NCBI GenBank assembly: GCA_963827165.1
Contig: CAWGZR010000006.1
Location: forward strand, 64,001-128,000
From: Candidatus Bathyarchaeota archaeon
Lineage (GTDB): Archaea; Thermoproteota; Bathyarchaeia; Bathyarchaeales; Bathycorpusculaceae
Reading direction: 5' to 3'
DNA length: 64,000 nt
Numbering within the stretch: the first letter of the stretch is position 1; each line of letters opens with the position of its first letter. The notes under the pieces are model-generated. The model did no database searches, was not told the origin of the DNA, and was given only the letters and a program-made list of their open reading frames with translations. A program made the position numbers and the translations under genes. This document shows, piece by piece, positions 2,292 to 48,801 of this stretch.

Positions 2292-3254
2292 TCAATTAGG
2301 CGAATGTTCTTCGAAAAATTTTAGAAAGTGATCGTGAAGAAATCGGGGATGGTACCCAAATTCTGTGGCCCATTTAACACTGAATTTATAATAGTTTTCT
2401 ACATCGACAATTGCAGGGTGCAAGGTACTGTTCGCTTTTTTAAGAGGGGATGTAACAGTCAAAACATTGATTCTTTGAAGATATCTAAGATGTTTAAGCA
2501 ATAGTTCGAATTTATCAAATAAGCAAGATATTTCTGCAGGATTCCTTGCGGGAAGCTGAATGAGTTTTTCGGGATTAAGTTTGCCCCCATTAAATTTAGA
2601 GTAATAGATCAAGTCCCAATCAGACGTGTTAACAAGTTTACTAGGATGGATAGTTAACACCGATACCTTTCTTTTCATTATAAATTTTTGTAGGTGAAGG
2701 TGCTTACGGAAACCGCCTCGCCAGTCGTCAGGAAAAAGTGGATAAGGATAAAATGTTACATCTCGGTAAGCAATTAGATCTGAGGATAACTTGGCGGAAA
2801 AATCATAACTAATTCCAAAAGTTTTTAGGGCATCAAGATGTGGGGGACTCCAGCAGTAGCCAGGAGCCCTAAAAGAAACTATATGTTTCTTAGGGAAAAG
2901 AGCTTGTAAAGCATGTATCCCGCCTGCACCCTCAATCGCACCTGTCAAAGGATTAATGTGAGCAGTCTCCCGGATAAGTGATGTTTGATATGCCTCATCG
3001 TAACTGTTTAAATCAGTAAATTCAAATAACGTAGGATGAACAGAATGACTTGAAGTATGATAACCAATTTGATGCTCATTTAGAAGCTCCGTCGTTTTAG
3101 GGAAAATACTCAACAGCTCAGCCATATGCCCTGTTACGAAGAAAAGTGCTTGCAAATCATGCTTCTTCAAAAGTTCTAAGACACGATTCAAAGCCAGAAC
3201 TGAGTTTTCGCTGACGAAATCCTCCGTGTCGAAGGTTAAATAAAGACTATGCAT
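2292..3254 (-). CDS. Polysaccharide deacetylase (CE4/NodB-like)
   Basis: LTFDTED, FFVTG, IGYHTSSH, FRAPG and TIHP motifs. Confidence 0.85.
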   Translation of the reverse strand: MHSLYLTFDTEDFVSENSVLALNRVLELLKKHDLQALFFVTGHMAELLSIFPKTTELLNEHQIGYHTSSHSVHPTLFEFTDLNSYDEAYQTSLIRETAHINPLTGAIEGAGGIHALQALFPKKHIVSFRAPGYCWSPPHLDALKTFGISYDFSAKLSSDLIAYRDVTFYPYPLFPDDWRGGFRKHLHLQKFIMKRKVSVLTIHPSKLVNTSDWDLIYYSKFNGGKLNPEKLIQLPARNPAEISCLFDKFELLLKHLRYLQRINVLTVTSPLKKANSTLHPAIVDVENYYKFSVKWATEFGYHPRFLHDHFLKFFEEHSPN

Positions 3255-3308
3255 TGTTTTTCCTTCAAAAAGTCACGCCGAATATTCTAAAGGCCAATCA
3301 AGAAAATG

Positions 3309-4496
3309 CTAATTTCCGAAAGAATGATAGACATCATTTACTCTTGATGCGATCACACTGATATCATGTTCTTTAACGCTTTTCATTCCATTTGAAGCAA
3401 GAGTCTTTTGAAGTGTTCTGTCATTAAATAAATTAATTAACGAAGCAGCCAATTGCTCAGAGTTTCCCGGTTGCACTAAAAGACCATTCTCGCCATCGGA
3501 AATTAGTTCTTTCATGATTCCATATGCCGGGGCTACAACGGCTAGACCTGCGGCCCATGCTTCAAGGGTGGCGATATAGCCGCTTTTAGTTCCAATAAAA
3601 ACATCGCTACTCCACAGGAACCGCCTAACGTCGCTTTTCGCGCCAACCAACGAAACAGAATCACTAAGACTCAAATCTTTGACTAAATTGCTGACAGACT
3701 TATAAAGCGGACCATCCCCAACAATTTGAAGGCTTGCGGAAGGCACCTTTTCTTTAACTACTGCAAAAGCGCGGACAGGAGTTAATGGGTCCTTGCCGGC
3801 ATCAAGTCGACCAACCGTAATTGCTCTAGTCCCCAAATTATTTGCGGACGAAATCGGGCGATAAAAGGATTTCACCTTAATGAAATTAGGAAGTAGAATA
3901 GTTTTCTTACCTAGACCTAATTCTTCAATCAAATCTAATACATCTGTTGAAAAAGTTGTTATTGCACTAGCTTGTTTAAAAACCTGTAATATAACGGGAT
4001 TTCTAAGAGGCATCGCATAAGAATCGTTTGGATCAACTGAATCGCCATGAAGAGAAATTACTAAAGGTCTATGAAAATGTTGACTTAACAACATTGCGAG
4101 AACTGGAAAACGTGGCCTCCAAAGACCGTGAAGGTGAAAGACATCCACTTTATCCATTTCTGGAATTCGAATTGCTTCCTTGAGCAAGCTCTTTATGAGA
4201 AGATCATCTAAAATCTTGAACTCAGTATGGGTTATTTTTTGAGAAGCATTTCTTAAATAACTTGAGAAAGTTGGTCCCAATCTATGCAGTTCTATGCTAT
4301 TAATTCTTTGGCACTTTGGCAGCTTATATTTCATAGGAAAAGGAATATTAGATCGATCAGTAAGCATTAGAAAACTCAAACTCGAATCATGTTTTAATAG
4401 AAAATCAGACAAATTTAATACATATTTTTCCAAGCCGCCTGAACCGGTGGGAAAGAAGTTGTGCCAAAGATGACAGATTCGCATTATTTCAATCAC
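3309..4496 (-). CDS. GT4 family glycosyltransferase
   Basis: GGLE, HLHG, VGRLDAGKD, VGDGP, LEAWAAGLAVV, NGLLV. Confidence 0.92.
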   Translation of the reverse strand: MIEIMRICHLWHNFFPTGSGGLEKYVLNLSDFLLKHDSSLSFLMLTDRSNIPFPMKYKLPKCQRINSIELHRLGPTFSSYLRNASQKITHTEFKILDDLLIKSLLKEAIRIPEMDKVDVFHLHGLWRPRFPVLAMLLSQHFHRPLVISLHGDSVDPNDSYAMPLRNPVILQVFKQASAITTFSTDVLDLIEELGLGKKTILLPNFIKVKSFYRPISSANNLGTRAITVGRLDAGKDPLTPVRAFAVVKEKVPSASLQIVGDGPLYKSVSNLVKDLSLSDSVSLVGAKSDVRRFLWSSDVFIGTKSGYIATLEAWAAGLAVVAPAYGIMKELISDGENGLLVQPGNSEQLAASLINLFNDRTLQKTLASNGMKSVKEHDISVIASRVNDVYHSFGN

Positions 4497-4726: not shown

Positions 4727-5917
4727 CTAAGAACATGTTTCGATGACAGCCTCTAAAACTTTTTTCCTTTGTCCCTCAGCTAAAGACAGAACTTGTTCTC
4801 GGTTTTGCAAGCCCATTTCGGCCAATTTATCTTTGTTTAAGCTCAATAATTGACTCAATTTGGCTGCCAAGTCATGGGGATCAAGATAAGTATACTCATG
4901 TGGTAGCAAATCCCCACGCGAACCAAAATTGTCTGAGAGTACAACAAGCCCGGCCATAGCGTAGTCATATTTTCTTTCGTTTGTCCCACCTTTATGAACA
5001 CCCACATTTATACCGAGCCAAGATTTACTAAGAATTGTAAAATAATCTATTTTGGTTGAAACGTAGTCATAATGTTGAAGCTCAACATTTTTTGGGGTGC
5101 GTTGCGAGTCTATTCCAATCAGATTAACTTTTATTTTTTTATTAATAAAGGATAGCGCTCTGAAGATTTCTTCGATGGATCTATTGACGCTATCTCCCCA
5201 ATGAGCACGCAGGACAATGCTTATGCTTGGCTCCTGGTCCTTGTCCGCCGGCTTAAATTCTGCAATTGGATAAATATTAGGATAAAAAATCACTTTTTTT
5301 GCACCCATTTCTAAATATTTAAGCTGGTCTCTTTCGCTGCAAGCTACAACCAAATCGGATAAGGCAACCGCATCGCGTTCCAACTTGTACATTAGTGTTT
5401 TTGTTACAACGTTATTCCCGAAATTGAAATGATCGTAAGCAACATCTTGAGACACATAAACAATCGACCCAAATAGTTTAAGGCTTTTTAAATTGACAAT
5501 GTTTATGCTAACGAATTCATCTATTAAGAAAATTTTTGGAGAGTTTGTTTTTCTCAAGAAAGCCATCAAGAGATTTGTTCGAACAGGTTTATCAAAATAT
5601 TCTCCTAAAGCTTGAGAAAGACTAGACAAGAAGCCTTCAACGAACAAGACATTTGAGCGCTTTGTTCGCAAAAACCGCTTTATTAGTCCATCACGCACAC
5701 TCGCAGGACTTCGAACCAACATGAGAAAGTAATGAATAAAATTGCCGGAAGCAGAAGCGGCCAAAGCAACTTCTTGTTTTGACCATTTCTCTTCAAATCG
5801 AGAATCAGCGCGTCTATAAACATAAAAAAAATCTCCATTCGAATTCAGGTTAAAAGACTTAACTACGAAATCCATCTTTAATGAAAGTTTTCCGCCATCA
5901 TTAATGACAATTATCAC
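4727..5917 (-). CDS. Divergent GT-B/GT4-like glycosyltransferase
   Basis: SDLVVACSERD, PN and KYDYAMAGLVVLS resemble the GT4 C-terminal motif; glycan cluster context. Confidence 0.6.
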   Translation of the reverse strand: MIIVINDGGKLSLKMDFVVKSFNLNSNGDFFYVYRRADSRFEEKWSKQEVALAASASGNFIHYFLMLVRSPASVRDGLIKRFLRTKRSNVLFVEGFLSSLSQALGEYFDKPVRTNLLMAFLRKTNSPKIFLIDEFVSINIVNLKSLKLFGSIVYVSQDVAYDHFNFGNNVVTKTLMYKLERDAVALSDLVVACSERDQLKYLEMGAKKVIFYPNIYPIAEFKPADKDQEPSISIVLRAHWGDSVNRSIEEIFRALSFINKKIKVNLIGIDSQRTPKNVELQHYDYVSTKIDYFTILSKSWLGINVGVHKGGTNERKYDYAMAGLVVLSDNFGSRGDLLPHEYTYLDPHDLAAKLSQLLSLNKDKLAEMGLQNREQVLSLAEGQRKKVLEAVIETCS

Positions 5918-6164
5918 TTAAAATCAACCCCCAAAGACATGAAATAGCTATCACCGTTATCAGGCTTACTAAGTCTAAACAACCAAGCAATCATTTGTTT
6001 TATTCTACCAAACACATGTCTAAATTGAGCAGCATTTAATGTACCAAAAATCTTGAGTATTTCTTCAAAGACTGCAAGAATCAACTAAAGAGCATATTCG
6101 GTTTTGTAATCATCGAAACCACTTTAATTTTTGCCGCAGTTAATGTGATGCCGACTTTTGTATG

Positions 6165-7031
6165 TTAAATTACGAAAACTCGCTCTTTTATGCACATTTT
6201 CCATAATTGCAAACGTTCAGAAATCGCAAAAACATAGGTAAAAGGCACCAATTTGTAGTCATCAGAGCTTTCAAATTTGTTATTAAAGAGACTTGCAAAA
6301 ACTGCAGGCGGACAAAGTATTTTGAACAAGTCAAACGGAAAAGCAATGCGGCCCGCAATGCATTCTTTGTCGTTATACTTCTTGAATAAGCGCACTCTGT
6401 ATTTTGAGTGGGAAGCTGACTCAACGAACTTTTTTGGCGTTTGAGTTACTCGAGGGTGATATGCGATCATTTCTGGACTGAAACAAATTTCGCCCAAACG
6501 CATGATTTTAAAGGCAATGTCCCTATCTTCAAAATAACGCAGTTCTTCATCAAAACCGCCAACTGCTTGGATAACCTTCTTTTTGTAAGCAATGCTACCA
6601 GTCATGAATTTGTTTCCGTGCTTGTTCTCCATAACGTAATCTGAAAATGTTGGCTGATAATCTCTTGCCACATAATAAATTGCTCCTTCTACTGCAACGC
6701 AACTATTGTTCTTGAAATACTTCATTCCTTCTTCAATCCAATTTTCAGATATGGTACAATCGCCGTCGGTGAAAAAGATATACTCTCCTGATGCTTTTTT
6801 CAGTCCTTTGTTCCTGCTTGCGGATATACCGAGCCTTTTTTCGTTCCTAAAATATTTTATTCTCCTATCATTAAATGCGTCAACTATATTCGCAGTATTA
6901 TCGCTGCTTTGATCGTCAATTATTATAAGCTCAAATTCAGAAAAGGATTGACATAGGATCGAATTGATGCATGCCTTTACGTAGTTTTCCTCGTTCCTGA
7001 CACATATGACGACGCTAACGCCTTCGTTCAT
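6165..7031 (-). CDS. GT2 family glycosyltransferase, paralog of 1201..2091
   Basis: VSVVICVRNEE, IIDDQSSD, FFTDGDC, GGFDE, EDRD; ATG 7031 preferred over the track start. Confidence 0.92.
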   Translation of the reverse strand: MNEGVSVVICVRNEENYVKACINSILCQSFSEFELIIIDDQSSDNTANIVDAFNDRRIKYFRNEKRLGISASRNKGLKKASGEYIFFTDGDCTISENWIEEGMKYFKNNSCVAVEGAIYYVARDYQPTFSDYVMENKHGNKFMTGSIAYKKKVIQAVGGFDEELRYFEDRDIAFKIMRLGEICFSPEMIAYHPRVTQTPKKFVESASHSKYRVRLFKKYNDKECIAGRIAFPFDLFKILCPPAVFASLFNNKFESSDDYKLVPFTYVFAISERLQLWKMCIKERVFVI

Positions 7032-7539: not shown

Positions 7540-7626
7540 AACTTCGCAAAGCTTGTCAAGTTGACTTCGCAAGGTTTCGCTAAAGTTGACAAGTCACGTC
7601 AATGAGTTTTTCAAAAACCTATAAAA
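7540..7626 (+). promoter_or_regulatory. Phased operator-like repeats followed by a BRE/TATA-like element
   Basis: Six 8-mers (cttcgcaa, cttgtcaa, cttcgcaa, tttcgcta, gttgacaa, cacgtcaa) ending at 7549, 7559, 7572, 7582, 7592 and 7602; aaaacctataaaa at 7614-7626. Confidence 0.5.
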
Positions 7627-7673
7627 CAGATTCAAGGAATATGACGTTTCAAAAGCTAAGAAGAGAGAGGAAA

Positions 7674-9389
7674 ATGAAAACACATAACATAGGGAAAAAA
7701 GTTCAGCTAATAAACCTTAGAAAATTGGCGAAACCAGCCGCTCTTTGTATCAGCGCACTTTTCCTTATAAGCATACTATCAGCTTTTGCCTTTGGTGCAG
7801 GCCAAGGTGCATCAGCATCAACTACCATGTTTGGGAATACAGCAGTTGGATCAGTTAACAATTATTTTGGCACCGATAAAGACGCAAGCAGATTCCAACT
7901 AACCCAAAGCGGCCAAGTCCAAAGCATATCAACCTACTTCACCACAACAGGCTTTAGCGCCAAAGCAGCAATATACACAGACAACAACGGCGCACCAAAC
8001 ACCCTAATAGCCCAAAGCAGCAGCCAAACAGTCACCACAACAGGATGGAACACATTCACCCTCCCACAAAGCACCCTCACCACAGGATACTACTGGCTAT
8101 GCATAATCTCAAGCAGCTCATCAGCAACAGGAACAATGAGCTCCACAACCGCAAACACACACGCATGGAAAACAACCACCTACTCAAACGAGTATACATC
8201 AACTTTTGGAACCCCAACCGGATACGAACAAACCACCACAAGCATATACGCCACCTACACACCCACAACGACCACTACTACCGCCCCAACACTTACAACC
8301 ATGTTTGGGAATACAGCAGTTGGATCAGTTAACAATTATTTTGGCACCGATAAAGACGCAAGCAGATTCCAACTAACCCAAAGCGGCCAAGTCCAAAGCA
8401 TATCAACCTACTTCACCACAACAGGCTTTAGCGCCAAAGCAGCAATATACACAGACAACAACGGCGCACCAAACACCCTAATAGCCCAAAGCAGCAGCCA
8501 AACAGTCACCACAACAGGATGGAACACATTCACCCTCCCACAAAGCACCCTCACCACAGGATACTACTGGCTATGCATAATCTCAAGCAGCTCATCAGCA
8601 ACAGGAACAATGAGCTCCACAACCGCAAACACACACGCATGGAAAACAACCACCTACTCAAACGAGTATACATCAACTTTTGGAACCCCAACCGGATACG
8701 AACAAACCACCACAAGCATATACGCCACCTACACACCCACAACGACCACTACTACCGCCCCAACACCAGCGCCAACACAAACACCAGCACCAAGTTCACC
8801 TACTAGCGGGAACAGTCTAATTCCAATTAATGATGGGGACTGGTATACTGATTCGCAGTGGCTTCAGTGCCCGGCACTCAATGTCCAACTTGACACAACC
8901 GATACTTGTGGAGGCTCTCCCAGCTGGGAAATTACTGGAAATGCAGTTAACCTCGGAGCTGACTATGGAGGTCTAGGCGTTGCGCCAGGTGACCAAATCG
9001 TTTTTAGTTGTTGGATTAAGACTTCCGCTGCTACCCTTGGAGCTGACGTAGGTAATCCTCAAGCGGGGGGAGAAATCGGCATAGACATGTATGGGGCTAA
9101 GGGAGTAATATGTGGTCTTGTTACTCCGAATGGCGTTGGTAGTTCTACGAACACGGTTAACAACTATGTTACATTTGGAACTAACACATGGAAACAAGTC
9201 ACTATGAGCTTTACAATCCCATCTACCTATCAAGTCGAAGCTGGTTATGGTAATGCTTATCCAGCAGGTCAATCTGTAACTCCGACGTCAATTATTCCTT
9301 GGTTGATGGTTTGGAGTGATACGCAAGGCTCAAATGAACATGGAACAGTATGGTTCGCCGATACACAATTGACCATAACTGCACCATAA
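7674..9389 (+). CDS. Secreted Thr/Ser-rich surface protein: two identical beta-sandwich modules (DUF4082/choice-of-anchor-R-like), PT linker, C-terminal CBM-like domain
   Basis: Basic N-region plus hydrophobic signal (LCISALFLISILSAFAFG); repeated FGNTAVGS...SIYATYT module; linker APTPAPTQTPAP; no C-terminal TM. Domain names by resemblance only. Confidence 0.8.
   Translation: MKTHNIGKKVQLINLRKLAKPAALCISALFLISILSAFAFGAGQGASASTTMFGNTAVGSVNNYFGTDKDASRFQLTQSGQVQSISTYFTTTGFSAKAAIYTDNNGAPNTLIAQSSSQTVTTTGWNTFTLPQSTLTTGYYWLCIISSSSSATGTMSSTTANTHAWKTTTYSNEYTSTFGTPTGYEQTTTSIYATYTPTTTTTTAPTLTTMFGNTAVGSVNNYFGTDKDASRFQLTQSGQVQSISTYFTTTGFSAKAAIYTDNNGAPNTLIAQSSSQTVTTTGWNTFTLPQSTLTTGYYWLCIISSSSSATGTMSSTTANTHAWKTTTYSNEYTSTFGTPTGYEQTTTSIYATYTPTTTTTTAPTPAPTQTPAPSSPTSGNSLIPINDGDWYTDSQWLQCPALNVQLDTTDTCGGSPSWEITGNAVNLGADYGGLGVAPGDQIVFSCWIKTSAATLGADVGNPQAGGEIGIDMYGAKGVICGLVTPNGVGSSTNTVNNYVTFGTNTWKQVTMSFTIPSTYQVEAGYGNAYPAGQSVTPTSIIPWLMVWSDTQGSNEHGTVWFADTQLTITAP
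7824..8766 (+). repeat. In-frame tandem duplication, 2 x 469 bp (7824-8292 and 8298-8766), period 474
   Basis: Copies read as identical; the shadow ORFs 8077..8268 and 8551..8742 have identical translations 474 bp apart. Confidence 0.97.
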
Positions 9390-11131: not shown

Positions 11132-11935
11132 TTGAAAAAAAGTAAATACTTTGCCATCATCTTGTGCGTCATATTATGCTACTCTGCGGTGCTTATAACA
11201 ACACGAGCACAAGTTTCAATTCAAGTCAACATATCATCGTCCGGAAGCATCGCGATATCCAAACCGAGCCCAAGCCCAACACCCTCACCGACCCCTAAGC
11301 CTTCTTCTACACCAACGCCGTCCCCAACACCAACGCCAACAGGTTCACCCAGCAACTTAGTTTGCATTAATGATGGGCAATGGTATGCAGATTCAACTTG
11401 GGGCTTAGCTCCCACCCTTAACGTCGCCCTGGACACATCTGCATCTGACGAATACCAAGGAAATCCCGTTTGGCTAATTACTTCAAACTCAGAAAACAGC
11501 GGCGTTGATCACTGCATCGACTCAATTGCACCCGGCGACACAATTTATTTCAGCTGTTGGATAAAAACTGGCTCAGCTACTCAATCGTCTGATGCGAATA
11601 ATCCGCAGGCAGGAGGTAGAATTGGTATTGACATGTATGGTTCAGGCGGTGACATTTGCGGTCTTTGCACTCCTGACGGAGTTGGAAACCCCACTAACAG
11701 TTATAATACTTATGTTGAATTTGGAAAAAGTACATACGCTCAAGTGACGATGCAATTTACTGTTCCAGCCACTTACACGTATGTGAACCAAGGACTAGAC
11801 ACGAGCTACAGCTCAGGTCAACAGGTTACTCCAACTTGGTGCATTCTATGGCTTCAAGTCTGGGGGCCAGGGTATACATCTGGTGAAACTGCAAAAGTTT
11901 GGTTTAGCGACCCCGTATTCACGGTAAATACATAA
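11132..11935 (+). CDS. Secreted protein with PT linker and CBM-like domain, paralog of the C-terminal domain of 7674..9389
   Basis: Signal peptide MKKSKYFAIILCVILCYSAV; PSPTP repeats; shared APGD.I.FSCWIKT and NPQAGG.IGIDMYG motifs. Confidence 0.82.
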   Translation: MKKSKYFAIILCVILCYSAVLITTRAQVSIQVNISSSGSIAISKPSPSPTPSPTPKPSSTPTPSPTPTPTGSPSNLVCINDGQWYADSTWGLAPTLNVALDTSASDEYQGNPVWLITSNSENSGVDHCIDSIAPGDTIYFSCWIKTGSATQSSDANNPQAGGRIGIDMYGSGGDICGLCTPDGVGNPTNSYNTYVEFGKSTYAQVTMQFTVPATYTYVNQGLDTSYSSGQQVTPTWCILWLQVWGPGYTSGETAKVWFSDPVFTVNT

Positions 11936-13728: not shown

Positions 13729-14448
13729 TTACCGTTGGGAGGTAATTTTTTCTTTAGGAATTCCAGCTGCAACTAGAAACTCTTGAAATGATTTGTAGAA
13801 TGGTTCTGAGGCTAAAAAATTCGAATAAGCAGATCCCAGCTGACTCTTAATAGGCAGATCGCCTCGATTGTAAGTTCTTTCAAGGAAAATTGGAAATTCT
13901 TCCAAGAAATCGGCAATCTGCGGGATTTTTTTTGTTTTACGATATAATTCTAAAGCATATGCTTTTGCTTCTTCAACATAGACAGCTTTTCTTTTTTTAT
14001 AATACTCTTCGAGAGTCATAATCACCTTACAAGGATTACCTACTGCAACGCAATTTGAAGGAATATCGTGAGTGACTACGGAACCAGCACCTATAATCGT
14101 ATTTTTTCCTATTCTCACGCCCTTCAATATTACGGTGTTAACCCCAACAAACACATTTTCTTCCAAAACTACTTTTCCAGAACAACAAAGCATTTCCCCA
14201 AATTTCTCGCGTAAGACGGCCCAATCATAACTATGCGTTAAAAGAACTACGCCATCAGCTAGAATGCAGTTTCGTCCTATTTCGACTAAACAAGGTCGTC
14301 TATTATAATCAATGGATACATGTCCAAAAAACGCTGTGCCCTCTCCAATGATAACGCCTTTCTTTCTCAGAAACGTAATATATAATCTCGGATCAGACAT
14401 ACAAATTTTTTGAAGAATTGTCGATATTAATCTGGAAACTGTATACAT
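13729..14448 (-). CDS. LbH (hexapeptide repeat) acyltransferase
   Basis: LLTHSYD, VFVGVNTVILKGVRIGKNTIIGAGSVVTHDIP, GNPCK. Confidence 0.9.
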   Translation of the reverse strand: MYTVSRLISTILQKICMSDPRLYITFLRKKGVIIGEGTAFFGHVSIDYNRRPCLVEIGRNCILADGVVLLTHSYDWAVLREKFGEMLCCSGKVVLEENVFVGVNTVILKGVRIGKNTIIGAGSVVTHDIPSNCVAVGNPCKVIMTLEEYYKKRKAVYVEEAKAYALELYRKTKKIPQIADFLEEFPIFLERTYNRGDLPIKSQLGSAYSNFLASEPFYKSFQEFLVAAGIPKEKITSQR

Positions 14449-14673
14449 GCCTTTTCGCCTGTAAGCTTATTCCTCAAATTTAAATTAATGACCACCAAGA
14501 TAATATTGGTTCTTTCTAAGTGCTAATCACAAATATATTATTAATGAATTACAGCGTGAAAGTGGAAAGAGGTTGAAGATTTGATTTTATGAATTTAGGT
14601 GCAAGTGGCATTAGCATAGCCAGTGCGTTATTAGCATCAGCACGTCCTATTGCATTTAGTCACAGATAACGCG

Positions 14674-15888
14674 TTAGCATGCGTGATTTAGAAGATTTCG
14701 AATAATCCGCAAGTAATTCTCAGTGTAAGCTTTCGGAGAAAAGTTTTTTTCAAAAACATTTTTTATTTTCTGCGGCGACAGGTCTTTTTTCGAAAAATGC
14801 AACAAAATATCTTTAAGTTCAGTCCAATCATTAAAAATCAAATTCGGATCGACTTTTTCGATGATTTCAGGCAGTCCGCCTTGATTTGAACTAATCACAG
14901 GAGTGCCAACGGAGAGTGCTTCTAAGGCGACTAAAGGAGCGTTTTCCGGCCAGATGGACGGAATTATTACAGCTAATGCATTTGCATATAGCGAATATTT
15001 GGTCATATTGTCGACAAAGCCTAAAAATAAAATAGAGTCGCTTAGCGAATTCTCCTCAATGTAATCACGGATATAAGGGCTAAGGCTTCCCCCACCTGCA
15101 ACCACTAGTTTAGCATTAAGATTGTGCCTTTGTTCCTTAAACAGTTCTATAAGATTCAGAATGCCTTTATGCTTTTCTAACATGCCCAGAAACAAAAAAT
15201 AATTTTCGTATCTGGAAGAGGGAATATTGTCAGGTGGGTGTGGCACGAAATTAGGCAATGTGACACTTGGCACATCAATCTCTTGTACCAACCGCTTTCG
15301 AACATACTCACTGGGTGATATAAGAAGATCAATGTTCCGAACCGCCATCTTGAAGTTTCGACATGAACGCCAGATTTGAGGAATTCGGTTAGATTTAAGA
15401 GAACATGAAGAACAACTTTTTACGTTGCAAATCTCTTCCTGGTTCTTAAAGAGATTATTTGTCGGGCAGATTAACCAGTAATCGTGAGCAGTATATAAAG
15501 AAAGATAGTCTGATCTTTTTCTGAGGAGGTCATACCCCATGAGAGAAATATTGTGGTGATGAACTACATTTGGACGAACGTCCTTTAAAATTTGCGAAAA
15601 TTTGGCATCAACCCACAAGGAATTGCCAACAGTGTAAATCAATAAAGGATCCAAAGTGCCTAAAGGAGATTTGATAGCATGAACAAAGACGTTTTCTTGG
15701 CGAGAAACCACCTTGTTAGGCTGAATTTTACCCCGCTTTACCTTGTACGCATCCAAGCTATGTATTATATGAACTTCATGACCACGATCTGCCAGTTCTT
15801 TAGACAGGTACTCGACATGAGTCGCATCTCCACCAATATGATAAGGCGGATAGAAACTTGAAGAAAACAGAAATTTTAGATGCTCCAT
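14674..15888 (-). CDS. GT4 family glycosyltransferase
   Basis: YPPYHIGG, HHHN, TAHDYWLICP, PSIWPENAPLVALEALSVG. Confidence 0.93.
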   Translation of the reverse strand: MEHLKFLFSSSFYPPYHIGGDATHVEYLSKELADRGHEVHIIHSLDAYKVKRGKIQPNKVVSRQENVFVHAIKSPLGTLDPLLIYTVGNSLWVDAKFSQILKDVRPNVVHHHNISLMGYDLLRKRSDYLSLYTAHDYWLICPTNNLFKNQEEICNVKSCSSCSLKSNRIPQIWRSCRNFKMAVRNIDLLISPSEYVRKRLVQEIDVPSVTLPNFVPHPPDNIPSSRYENYFLFLGMLEKHKGILNLIELFKEQRHNLNAKLVVAGGGSLSPYIRDYIEENSLSDSILFLGFVDNMTKYSLYANALAVIIPSIWPENAPLVALEALSVGTPVISSNQGGLPEIIEKVDPNLIFNDWTELKDILLHFSKKDLSPQKIKNVFEKNFSPKAYTENYLRIIRNLLNHAC

Positions 15889-16113
15889 CGGACAGCCTCT
15901 TCACTGAAATAGTTAAGTTAATCACGTTTCTAAAAAATGTTTGAAGACTAAAAAATAAATCGAAAATTATGGCTAACGAAGCCCAACGTTGGGTGAATAG
16001 TTGTTTCCGCTAAAACTCGAAATTTCCAGGTTAAAATACTTTTACCTTTCTGCATGTTCACGTTTCGGCTTCTTGCTTTTTTGATGTTTTGTGTTTTTGT
16101 ATTCTAAATTACG

Positions 16114-16638
16114 TTAATAGTTATATCCTGTGGTATTGCGTAATTTTTTAGCTGGGTTTCCTGCAACTATTGTGTTGGGTTCAACGTCTTTAGTTACTAT
16201 TGATCCTGCACCGACAACCGAGTTATCTCCAATTGTTACACCTTTAAGAATCATTGCTCTCATGCCAATCCATACATGGTTTCCAATCTTGATTGATTTG
16301 CTTACTGCTGGGTTTCCGTCTAATCCGTAACCGTCATGGTCTATAAGCAGAGCTTGAGCGCTTACTACGACATCATTTCCGAGCTCTATGCTGCTTGTGC
16401 AAGTAATTGTTGACATTCGAAAGTATGTATGGCTACCAATCTTTATTGTTCCTCCGTTGAAAGCAAATAGTTTTGATTCGTTTTCAATTATTACTCCGTC
16501 ACCAACAATAATTTTTCCTTCGTTGATTACTTTAATTTTACCAGTAACTAACAGTCTACCTTCTACAGTCGTAAATTTCCTTTTGTAGAATGGAGTTATA
16601 ACTCGTCTTTGAAACAAAGAAGCTATTTCTTTTTTCAT
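16114..16638 (-). CDS. LbH acetyltransferase (MAT-like)
   Basis: IGNHVWIGMRAMILKGVTIGDNSVVGAGSIVTKDV, AGNPAK. Confidence 0.9.
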   Translation of the reverse strand: MKKEIASLFQRRVITPFYKRKFTTVEGRLLVTGKIKVINEGKIIVGDGVIIENESKLFAFNGGTIKIGSHTYFRMSTITCTSSIELGNDVVVSAQALLIDHDGYGLDGNPAVSKSIKIGNHVWIGMRAMILKGVTIGDNSVVGAGSIVTKDVEPNTIVAGNPAKKLRNTTGYNY

Positions 16639-16681
16639 GCTTCCAGTTTCACCTTTTTATGTTCATTTTTTTCAATTATTT

Positions 16682-17809
16682 TCACTGACCATGCTGTGCC
16701 CAAATAAGCGAGGCATATATTTTCTCAATCGTATCTGTTATCTTATTCCAATCATAATACTTCTCGACTCGGTCTATCGTCTTTCTTTCCATTTTATCAA
16801 CTGTCTCTGGATTTGCGAGAAGAAATTGGAGTTTTTCTTTTAGATCCTCCGAATCTCCATGTTTGAATGAAAAACCAGCATCGCCGATAGTTTCCAGATT
16901 TTCTGGAATGTCACTTACAAGTACACATTTGCCCAAAGCCATTGCTGTGAGCAAGGCAGGGGATGTGCCCTCAAGTTCAGAAGGGGTGACATAAAGGTAG
17001 GCACCTTTGCACAAATTCTCATAATCCTTTCCATATACGTACCCTAAAAACTTGGTATTTTTATTAGCGTTTTTTCTTAGAAGCCGCTCGTATTCCTTAT
17101 TATACGGGTCACCTCCAACGATAACCAATTCGAAATCCGTTTCGATTTTCTTAAAAGCCTCAACCAAATAATGAACGCCTTTCTCGTGCACTAACCTGCC
17201 TACAAAAAGGATGTATTTCTTATTTTTGAGGTTTTTACTGTCGAGAATTGTTTTATCAGGTTCTGATAGATCAATATTGGCCCCATAAGGGACATAAATT
17301 GGGGGCTTGCCGAAGTTCTTACAGTACCAAGCTTGTACTACTTTTGAGTCGACAATTGTGACATTAGGCAAATATAACGCATAACGAGCTGTAATACGTA
17401 GGATTTTTCTTACCCACAATGGATAACTCTTTCTATTCCAAACTAGACCATCAAGAGTAATTACCGTTTTTGAGGAAAACATCCTTGGAATAAGTGCAAA
17501 GGGCCAAGCATCAGAACCAAAAAGATGAACAACATCAAAATCCCTGTGTAATGTGTCAAAAGTAGAAACAAATGCGCGGAAAGGAAAATCCAGAAATTTG
17601 CTTTTTAGACAGCGGACATACAACAACTGCACACCTTTGTATGATCTCATCTGTGGTTTTAAATCCCTATATCCGCAGTATACAGTTACTTCATGCCCTT
17701 TTTTAGCAAGTCTAGTAGCAACTTCCTCGACACAGGTTTCAAATCCCCCATAGCGAGCGGGAATACCCATTGTTCCCGCAAAAGCGATTTTCAAAATAAT
17801 CAACACCAA
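16682..17809 (-). CDS. GT4 family glycosyltransferase (RgpA/DUF1972-like, possible rhamnosyltransferase)
   Basis: GTMGIPARYGGFET, DGLVWNR, YGA, VGRLVHEKG, EGTSPALLTAMALG; adjacent to rfbD. Confidence 0.88.
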   Translation of the reverse strand: MVLIILKIAFAGTMGIPARYGGFETCVEEVATRLAKKGHEVTVYCGYRDLKPQMRSYKGVQLLYVRCLKSKFLDFPFRAFVSTFDTLHRDFDVVHLFGSDAWPFALIPRMFSSKTVITLDGLVWNRKSYPLWVRKILRITARYALYLPNVTIVDSKVVQAWYCKNFGKPPIYVPYGANIDLSEPDKTILDSKNLKNKKYILFVGRLVHEKGVHYLVEAFKKIETDFELVIVGGDPYNKEYERLLRKNANKNTKFLGYVYGKDYENLCKGAYLYVTPSELEGTSPALLTAMALGKCVLVSDIPENLETIGDAGFSFKHGDSEDLKEKLQFLLANPETVDKMERKTIDRVEKYYDWNKITDTIEKIYASLIWAQHGQ

Positions 17810-31141: not shown

Positions 31142-31711
31142 TCACAAAACGCCACTTCGCTTGTCAACTGAGCCTACCAAAACATTCAACTCGTTTATGT
31201 CTAATTGCTGAGATAGCCATTTTTTAAGAATTAATGAAAAACTCGGCAATGCGCCCGTATACACGATTAATTTGTTTCCCTTAAGTGCGTTGACTTGAAA
31301 AACCGTCATATCTTCTTTATAATTGAAAGTCAAGCTTTGCGCCTTTACTGCCAATGCCTTAAAATCGCTCCACTGTTTGCATTGAAAAGTCGCGGAAGAT
31401 AGGTTATCGAACGCCTTGAAAGGTGTAGTTTGACCCGTTTGCTCCTTAATTTGGGTTGGAAGAGTTCCTTTTGGCGAGTTGTCTAATACGAAGGCGATTA
31501 GGTTTGTTACTTCTTTTTGGATTTGGCTTATTGTTTCTTCAGTTTTTTCGACTTTACTGTTTAATCCGTTTTTTGTCTTGCCTATTTGTTCGGTGACCGT
31601 TGCAATGTCATGAAATAATTTATCCAAATGCTGTTCATGTTCTTTTAGAGCGTTGATTATGAAATCTAACGCCTCTAGAGATTTGTCTTTCGAGTCGTGG
31701 TCGTCTGTCAT
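31142..31711 (-). CDS. Conserved hypothetical coiled-coil protein, paralog of 48244..48801
   Basis: SLEALDFIINALKEHE, CKQWSDF, ALKGN, KWLS shared with the paralog; similarity begins at ATG 31711. Confidence 0.8.
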   Translation of the reverse strand: MTDDHDSKDKSLEALDFIINALKEHEQHLDKLFHDIATVTEQIGKTKNGLNSKVEKTEETISQIQKEVTNLIAFVLDNSPKGTLPTQIKEQTGQTTPFKAFDNLSSATFQCKQWSDFKALAVKAQSLTFNYKEDMTVFQVNALKGNKLIVYTGALPSFSLILKKWLSQQLDINELNVLVGSVDKRSGVL

Positions 31712-31935
31712 GTCTTTCAATTTCCAAGTTGAAACTAAGCTATTTTTCTTTTTAAGGCATATTTCGGCAAAGAAATATTCTATCTCTTGATAGTAGCGGC
31801 CAACAAGTTGGTTACGACTGGTTTTTTCAAGGTGATCATTTTTCTTCTGGAGCGGGACAAATATTATATAGCAATACGTCATATACATTGCAAGGTTAAA
31901 CACAGCTCTTTGTAGGAGCAAGTAGGTAAGGAAGA

Positions 31936-34792: not shown

Positions 34793-34870
34793 TGGTGGAC
34801 CGGGCGGGATTTGAACCCGCGGCTTCCGCGTTGCGAACGCGGCGATCATACCAGGCTGATCTACCGGCCC
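34793..34870 (-). tRNA. tRNA-Ala(CGC), intronless, encoded CCA
   Basis: GGGCCGGTAGATCAGCCTGGTATGATCGCCGCGTTCGCAACGCGGAAGCCGCGGGTTCAAATCCCGCCCGGTCCACCA; G3:U70 pair, anticodon stem CCGCG/CGCGG. Confidence 0.97.
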
Positions 34871-48102: not shown

Positions 48103-48243
48103 GTGTAGTAAACATTCAGATATCAGAAAAGATAATTGTCAATAAGTATAAGTGAGACTCCACTGGGATATTATTTGAAGATTCGCTAGCTTTATCTATA
48201 AAGCGCCTCAATAATGAGTCCAGACAAGTGGGGGATAATTAGA

Positions 48244-48801
48244 TTGGCGAAGAATCCACAATCAAAAGACGATTCATTAGAGGCCTTAGACTTCATCGTT
48301 AACGTTCTCAAAGAACATGAAAAAGACCTGGACAAACTCATCAATGAATTGGCAACTGTCACCGAGCAGCTAGGAGATACAGGCGACATCGGCGGCAAAG
48401 TTGAAAAAGTTGAGGAAAAAATCTCCAGCTTACAGAAAGAAGTCACGAACCTAATGAGTTACATTTCAGGAGTCGGACCCAAGGAACCATTGCCGACGGG
48501 GGCGAAAGAAATGCAGGAAGCTATGCCTACTGCTTCTCCAGTGCAGGCGGGAGGTCCTTCAGTGATTTTAAGGTGCAAGCAATGGGAAGACTTCCAAAAC
48601 TTAGCGTCTCAAGCTCAAACCTTATCTTTCAATTATAAAGAAGAAGACAAGGTTTTCCAGGCTGACGCACTTAAAGGAAACAGGATAATTACCTACAGCG
48701 GCGCATTGCCAAAATTCTCTCAAATCGTAAAAGCATGGCTCTCAAAGGAACTCAGTGTCCCAGACAAAAGCATCCTTGAAGGCGTCTTAACTATAAGCTA
48801 A
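48244..48801 (+). CDS. Conserved hypothetical coiled-coil protein
   Basis: TTG after GGGGG; SLEALDFIVNVLKEHEKDLD; paralog at 31142..31711. Confidence 0.82.
   Translation: MAKNPQSKDDSLEALDFIVNVLKEHEKDLDKLINELATVTEQLGDTGDIGGKVEKVEEKISSLQKEVTNLMSYISGVGPKEPLPTGAKEMQEAMPTASPVQAGGPSVILRCKQWEDFQNLASQAQTLSFNYKEEDKVFQADALKGNRIITYSGALPKFSQIVKAWLSKELSVPDKSILEGVLTIS

Follow-up and report, generated by a model that had tools for sequence, protein, structure and literature searches.

Why should the middle of a single archaeal gene be written almost entirely in codons that end in A or C, when the sequence on either side of it, in the same message, is not? The gene in question lies in a window of 64,000 nt from Candidatus Bathyarchaeota archaeon (GCA_963827165.1, contig CAWGZR010000006.1, positions 64,001-128,000 of the forward strand; coordinates below are counted from the start of this window). 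We find that the skew is real and general in the clade, and we consider that it probably records gene conversion between repeated copies, strand-polar and filtered by mismatch type.

Results and discussion

An A/C-pure core in an exactly duplicated module

The features of the host gene and its controls are the following.

7602-9389, forward strand: host gene, 595 aa as called, with a likely start at ATG 7674 (571 aa)
7824-8292, forward strand: repeat copy 1, 469 nt identical to copy 2, period 474
8298-8766, forward strand: repeat copy 2, exact
7824-7880, forward strand: impure 5' edge of the repeat, first 19 codons, A/C in 9 of 18
7881-8189, forward strand: A/C-pure core of copy 1, 98 of 99
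8355-8663, forward strand: A/C-pure core of copy 2, 98 of 99, identical to that of copy 1
8190-8297, forward strand: 3' part of the repeat, A/C in 28 of 36 overall
8790-9386, forward strand: C-terminal domain (internal control), ordinary usage, A/C in 87 of 188
11132-11935, forward strand: diverged paralog of the C-terminal domain, without the module (control), unskewed, 97 of 181 over 11360-11932

The host gene, whose 571-aa form is represented in the database by protein P0002, encodes a hydrophobic leader, two identical modules, a Thr/Pro linker, and the C-terminal domain; its product is predicted to be a secreted or surface protein, from a signal peptide recognised in the sequence itself rather than by a predictor. 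The gene has no match in Pfam, and the module family is in neither Pfam nor NCBIfam. The module (about 144 aa) is modelled as an all-beta jelly roll (AlphaFold pLDDT 95.8), with a cyanophage capsid-associated chain as its best Foldseek match (9jwb_Z; TMq 0.81, E 1e-6), and is duplicated in tandem exactly (474 bp).

The core is in frame within the ORF at 7602-9389. The hand count of the first-pass annotation proved exact: among its 103 codons, 4 are Met or Trp (3 TGG, 1 ATG), and A or C occupies 98 of the 99 informative third positions, the exception being a TTT at 7953; C accounts for 51 of these endings and A for 47. With the amino acids fixed and the codon usage of the 43 other window ORFs, 54.3 such endings are expected, and the probability of at least 98 is about 6e-25; the interval was chosen post hoc, but the margin is far larger than such a choice. 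Codons ending in A or C follow one another in a run of 74 in the core, none of the 43 other ORFs has a run longer than 17, and the highest A/C count in any 99-codon window of the remaining window ORFs is 85. The bias follows codon position: G or T stands at 38 of 103 first, 39 of 103 second, and 1 of 99 third positions. T and G endings are indeed used freely at the start of the repeat (9/18) and in the C-terminal domain (87/188), as had been remarked. The 5' edge (7824-7880) holds the residues that distinguish the database proteins P0003, P0007, and P0004 from the host gene; the 3' part (8190-8297) consists, in order, of an impure patch (8190-8210), a pure 20-codon run, and an impure linker end.

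Since A (47) and C (51) are balanced, the axis of the skew is amino/keto, with 33 A to 21 C at fourfold sites. The original description of an amino/keto rather than a GC effect thus holds as to the near equality of A and C, although GC3 also rises, from 0.30 in the C-terminal domain to 0.52 in the core. A weak-to-strong, strand-symmetric bias, as in GC-biased gene conversion, is not what the core displays: G is lost and A is gained. A diversity-generating retroelement is ruled out, as the copies are identical and none of the 54 window ORFs contains a reverse transcriptase domain.

The host gene sits in a glycosyltransferase island with GT2, GT4, and flippase neighbours. Glycosylation genes (flippase, GT2, GT4, deacetylase, RmlD, WbqC, DegT) extend over 1-28200, where GC is below that of most of the window, and part of this island is syntenic with a related locus, L008, at 74-77% identity. 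Elsewhere in the window, two unannotated paralogous ORFs (31142-31921 and 48214-48801) lie in inverted orientation with 68-74% DNA identity in pieces, the coding strand being A-rich at 31.4-31.6 kb; and a tRNA-Ala(CGC) at 34793-34870, immediately 3' of an aminoacyl-tRNA synthetase gene at the border of the low-GC region, is a possible integration boundary.

The same module in both polarities

The core was expected to have further copies, which is borne out only in part. In the window it has none besides its tandem twin; in the protein database, the second module of P0003, encoded by a different gene of this or another genome, is 97% identical to that of the host gene, the identity starting about six residues ahead of the purity. 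The toy model described below needs only two copies. A Ser (TCA) common to the host gene, P0003, and P0007 is Thr in most homologs, and is possibly an A>T change that spread. P0007 also has the unskewed C-terminal domain of the host gene; it may be an allele of the host gene, or sharing may not always purify. This residue and P0007 both count against the mechanism proposed below. P0002 differs from the window protein by one Ser/Thr change, present in both module copies. Two near-identical sister proteins, P0004 and P0008, carry two and one module copies, respectively, through variable copy number or assembly collapse. Homologs of the module occur in one to three copies, with cellulase-type, deacetylase, F5/8C, or GHL15 domains, and from this variation in number and partners we take the module to be shuffled between genes.

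For comparison, we used 13 related loci (L001-L013, 7-20 kb, three of them from one genome), picked for carrying the module; 11 of the 13 are assigned to Bathyarchaeota or Bathyarchaeia. A further one, L011, is a Gemmatimonadales record that carries an RNase P Rpr2 gene along with the module, for which reasons the contig looks archaeal (possible mis-binning). Third-position A/C in the module is 125/139 in the window, 119/139 in L001, 99/138 in L002, 98/137 in L010, 58-66% in L003-L009, 41/97 in L011, and 6/114 in L013, where a triple tandem forms a near-perfect G/T mirror of the A/C purity in the window. The bias extends to the other codon positions: A/C at positions 1 and 2 correlates with A/C at position 3 (rho 0.81 over 13 modules, with the G/T-rich but frameshifted L012 module excluded; 0.68 without the window and L013), and Thr content ranges from 34/143 residues down to 4/120. 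The shift at positions 1 and 2 and the occurrence of both polarities imply a force on the DNA itself that can run either way and extends to the protein; with both polarities present, there is nothing special about the sense strand. Polarity set by the sense strand or by transcription is thus ruled out by the mirror copies, and a rule based on locus strand gave a mixed outcome. Chromosomal position is likewise ruled out as the cause, since in the syntenic island of L008 the neighbours match and the module is unskewed (83/139).

Purity follows homogenised tracts

Pure repeats are not confined to this module; unrelated ones are found in PKD/Ig repeats of L007 (A/C at 3 and 4 of 99), InlB-B repeats of L009 (6/99), and a duplicated gene of L013 (1/99). 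The last is an unannotated gene rich in Val, Gly, Phe, and Leu (3147-4319 and 5634-6815), whose copies are 96.8% identical and G/T-pure, with their differences in short A/C-rich islands. Defining an ORF as extreme when it contains a 99-codon window with at least 89 or at most 10 A/C endings, we compared the 229 ORFs of 120 aa or more that the window and the 13 loci contain. Of the 28 with a repeat, 14 are extreme; of the 201 without, 2 are. The extreme repeat-bearing ORFs fall in 6 of the 8 genome groups that show repeats; as repeats are visible only within the window or the 7-20 kb loci, the class without repeats is overcounted. Half of the repeat-bearing ORFs are ordinary. That single-copy genes might reach the same purity had been named as a refutation, and two extreme ORFs without a repeat in their locus, a DegT gene of L001 (8/99) and ORF 4315 of L005 (90/99), go part of the way towards it, as do several kb of such skew in L001, but none attains 98/99. 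An apparent A/C tail at 7367-8629 in L005 was disregarded, since it comes from reading a Pro/Thr linker out of frame.

Within repeats, extreme 20-codon windows make up 86 of 209 in identical tracts, 19 of 165 in diverged repeat parts, and 82 of 2849 elsewhere, both copies being counted, so that observations are not independent. Paralogs are mosaics, among the matches listed, of long identical tracts and dense clusters of differences. We sorted 26 non-overlapping identical tracts by hand into 19 that lie inside diverged pairs and 7 that are fresh exact duplicates (including the tract at L001 11102, whose non-linker part is 99.8% identical). Of the 19 former, which come from 6 genomes only, 18 show polarity, where 5000 null draws gave a mean of 1.5 and never more than 8; of the 7 latter, 2 do. 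Duplication is thus insufficient, and repeated homogenisation appears to matter. In L007 and L008, modules in exact tandem are ordinary (80/138 and 83/139), which rules out that duplication as such causes purity. Nor does purity alone create identity, as A/C-rich copies still diverge by A/C exchanges: in the A/C-rich pair 1365/2024 of L001, 30 of 67 listed differences are within class. Mosaic identical tracts with the bias concentrated in them, as biased gene conversion would leave, are therefore found across the loci, the window itself offering the tandem twin only.

The proposal that a strand-biased process acts on multi-copy DNA survives in this form: the skew is a property of a strand and is tied to homogenised copies, but, as the L013 mirror demonstrates, that strand need not be the sense strand.

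A proposed strand-polar filter on conversion

In the mechanism that we favour, a single strand of one copy would anneal to the template strand of another, and in most events it would be the same strand of the duplex that is replaced; the incoming strand could come from a paralog, from the tandem twin, or from the allele of another strain, and its bias to one strand from lagging-strand gaps or template switching of nascent strands. Mispairs of the types G:T, T:T, and G:G would revert to the resident allele, while other mispairs would be retained. The changes G>A, T>C, T>A, and G>C could thus spread on the replaced strand and the reverse changes would be blocked; because the mispairs that revert consist of G and T only, the path from G/T to A/C would be one-way, and after many rounds every unconstrained site would be A or C. 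A gene would become A/C-pure or G/T-pure depending on which of its strands is replaced.

The likeliest candidate for the filter is EndoMS/NucS, an assignment that we hold as tentative, at slightly less than even chances. In vitro, this enzyme is reported to cut G/T, G/G, and T/T and barely A/C, C/C, and A/A (PMC4838380, PMC7736090), a specificity also reported in vivo with annealed single strands in M. smegmatis (PMC11551767); NucS is described as restraining homeologous recombination (PMC5290159), and in Haloferax deletion of nucS is described as impairing gene conversion (PMC11276520).

A toy simulation (one run per setting, with an assumed mutation spectrum) yields 0.96-1.0 A/C when the replaced strand is fixed, two copies being enough, about 0.8 at 75% strand bias, and 0.45-0.48 when the strand is random; without the filter there is no skew. 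Copies in opposite orientation reach mirror purity (0.93-0.95 and 0.07) and lose their identity. Asymmetric mismatch handling, as invoked by the first-pass annotation, thus fits but cannot act by itself: the asymmetric filter alone gives no skew, and the replaced strand must be biased too. The changes proposed there, G>A and T>C, are included but seem not to be the only ones. Fourfold sites have an A share of 33/54 and T shares of 160/240, 114/170, and 89/113; none of the four agrees with what transitions alone would give (p 0.02 to 1e-7), and 3 of them fit a process that preserves the W/S class, which suggests, subject to the assumed background, that T>A and G>C contribute too. The filter model gives an A share of about 0.57 and a T share of about 0.66, a transition-only mutation model about 0.46 and 0.55; the observed shares (0.61; 0.67-0.79) are nearer to the filter model, with 89/113 above both.

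Several findings sit badly with this mechanism. No nucS gene is present among the 54 window ORFs or the 118 of 175 locus ORFs scanned (93 of the 118 at E<=1e-12), none of the papers found in our literature search places nucS in Bathyarchaeia, and the accessible part of PMC7884376 makes no mention of Bathyarchaeota. The 14 of 28 repeat-bearing ORFs that are not extreme include those with modules in exact tandem in L007 and L008, as well as every one of the 7 repeat-bearing ORFs from the genome that contributed L004, L006, and L012. The two extreme ORFs without a local repeat could be explained by allelic exchange between strains. On one strand of L005, opposite polarities are separated by about 2 kb, and in L013 they share a single gene, so that a simple rule of replication direction fails unless domains have been shuffled. 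Purity at tract ends is lower on the side that co-repair by NucS would predict (119/152 as against 143/152), a side that we noticed after inspecting the L013 pair; without this discovery pair, the counts are 91/106 and 98/105 (p 0.11), in 30-nt bins that exceed the published patch (less than about 20 bp).

In L001, flippase, GT2, and DegT genes at 13793-17729, with no repeat in the locus, have sense strands strongly skewed to G/T, and the forward strand is accordingly A/C-rich over about 10 kb. A/C-pure GHL15 patches lie downstream of G/T-rich modules in L013 (about 11500-11600) and L012 (11397-11700), so that in two genomes both polarities occur in a single gene region.

Alternative explanations

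The rival that we take most seriously, though we consider it unlikely, is strand-specific mutation: one strand of the repeats, exposed at stalled forks, during resection, or in D-loops much like the mitochondrial heavy strand, would accumulate C>T and A>G deaminations or asymmetric replication errors, and the identity of the copies would be a separate effect of unbiased conversion. It accounts well for skew that runs over several kb across genes without local repeats (L001, L013), and a leading-strand bias to C>T and A>G is reported in an organism that has NucS (PMC6159521). Against it, a roughly 50-fold boost of transitions is needed for 97% purity, the shares then predicted (given above for the transition-only model, on an assumed background) fall short of those observed, and at the paralog differences of L013 purity breaks within tens of bases, more sharply than regional exposure would allow. 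Quite improbable, in our estimate, is a drive by the recombinase itself. RecA-family proteins prefer GT-rich single strands and tolerate G:T pairs, so that the G/T-rich strand would be the favoured invader and the skew would reinforce itself, with arbitrary polarity and without a repair enzyme; archaeal RadA shares the preference of RecA for TG-rich DNA. For RecA, this preference is described in PMC3763553. Neighbouring opposite polarities (L005, L013) follow naturally from such a drive, but wobble tolerance covers transitions only, leaving out T:T and G:G, and NucS, if present, would oppose it.

Selection at the level of translation or mRNA, favouring codons with A or C endings in a surface protein made in large amounts, finds an echo in the housekeeping genes of relatives, where ribosomal L15 reaches 88/99 and ilvC, an FtsY-type GTPase, and eIF6 reach 86/99. 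This sense-strand preference (ribosomal L15, ilvC, SRP-type GTPase, and eIF6 at L003 2532-2942 and 16750-17817 and at L009 4023-6283) is likely a translational bias and may add a mild A/C tilt, but the G/T-pure mirror of the same module in L013 largely excludes translational selection as the sole cause. The bias neither runs along the whole mRNA, which is unbiased on both sides of the core, nor has the same sign in orthologs; codon positions 1 and 2 are shifted too, and the syntenic gene of L008, whose neighbours match those of the window, has an ordinary module (83/139). We therefore regard it as very improbable as an explanation of the core. Import from a donor with a strong skew of its own, the other source suggested at first and here taken to be, for instance, a virus or plasmid, is a poor fit and hardly credible: look-alikes in a feature-based atlas are mostly viral clusters, and the best fold match is the cyanophage chain, but tblastn against 50,697 phage and 72,556 plasmid records returned no match, homologous modules mostly lack the skew (58-66% in L003-L009), and domain families unrelated to this one reach purity in either direction. 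Every sequence considered here is metagenome-assembled, the duplication is exact, and some loci contain frameshifts, all of which might suggest an assembly or consensus artefact at collapsed repeats; an artefact would not be expected to follow codon position as the core does (38 and 39 of 103 against 1 of 99 G/T), to recur across 6 genome groups, or to yield a separate protein (P0002) of the same two-module form with one difference common to both copies, and is almost certainly not the answer.

Relation to known systems

GC-biased gene conversion is a fixation bias that arises from the handling of heteroduplex mismatches. The archaeal tracts resemble it in that the bias is strongest in homogenised or recombining sequence and spills over into amino-acid changes; they differ in being amino/keto, strand-specific, of either polarity with respect to the coding strand, and near-complete over 100-400 codons. 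Replication strand skew, as between the leading and lagging strands of bacteria and in vertebrate mitochondria, lies on the amino/keto axis and is similarly extreme in mitochondria, but it spans whole replichores, whereas the archaeal tracts measure 60-1200 bp and track repeat identity. One polarity per strand over a long range, the mark of replication skew, is not what we find, although regional trends exist in L001 and L013.

EndoMS/NucS, in reverting G:T, G:G, and T:T and sparing A:C, C:C, and A:A, is the filter that the tract data call for; it acts over a short patch and curbs homeologous recombination, but the accessible parts of the papers describe it as a means of mutation avoidance and report no such long-term compositional footprint (PMC4838380, PMC11551767, PMC11551744, PMC5290159). 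The vls/vlsE system of Borrelia is likewise a conversion family of surface segments, with a mean GC skew of 0.52 as compared to 0.18 for the leading strand; there, G exceeds C, the AT skew is about 0, and the skew is read as selection for G-rich structures (PMC11499132), whereas the archaeal tracts lose both G and T and vary in polarity. In mycobacterial paralogs, again in an organism with NucS, a preprint describes a distinct spectrum, with more T>C/A>G and fewer C>T/G>A, and its authors suggest that repair asymmetry may reshape composition; its classes are strand-collapsed, reduced NucS action is suggested, and amino/keto-pure tracts do not figure in the part available (PMC13061034). Our literature search, which covered few subscription papers and no supplements, yielded no description of such tracts in Bathyarchaeota, and amino/keto-pure repeat tracts are apparently undescribed.

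Implications

Even as a product of mutation, a near-mitochondrial skew over tracts of 100-400 codons in a prokaryotic chromosome would surprise the specialist. As a product of conversion, it raises the possibility, to which we give somewhat less than an even chance, that Bathyarchaeia undergo amino/keto-biased conversion, NucS and strand-specific assimilation of single strands together forming a ratchet that strips G and T from one strand of any sequence that is often converted. The same ratchet could perhaps also produce Thr/Asn/Gln-rich and Gly/Val-rich versions of a domain and cut exchange between oppositely oriented paralogs, a corollary that we put forward with similar reserve. If so, a second axis of biased conversion, strand-polar and amino/keto, would stand beside GC bias, and the NucS pathway would gain a visible evolutionary signature, through which its action in recombination intermediates, and the strand on which it acts, could be tested in genomes and in model archaea. 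What is inferred about codon usage, horizontal transfer, and selection in the surface-protein genes of archaea may then be driven by a force that is not adaptive and yet alters the protein sequence, and the purity of a tract would be a record of the rate and strand of recombination in organisms that have yet to be cultured.
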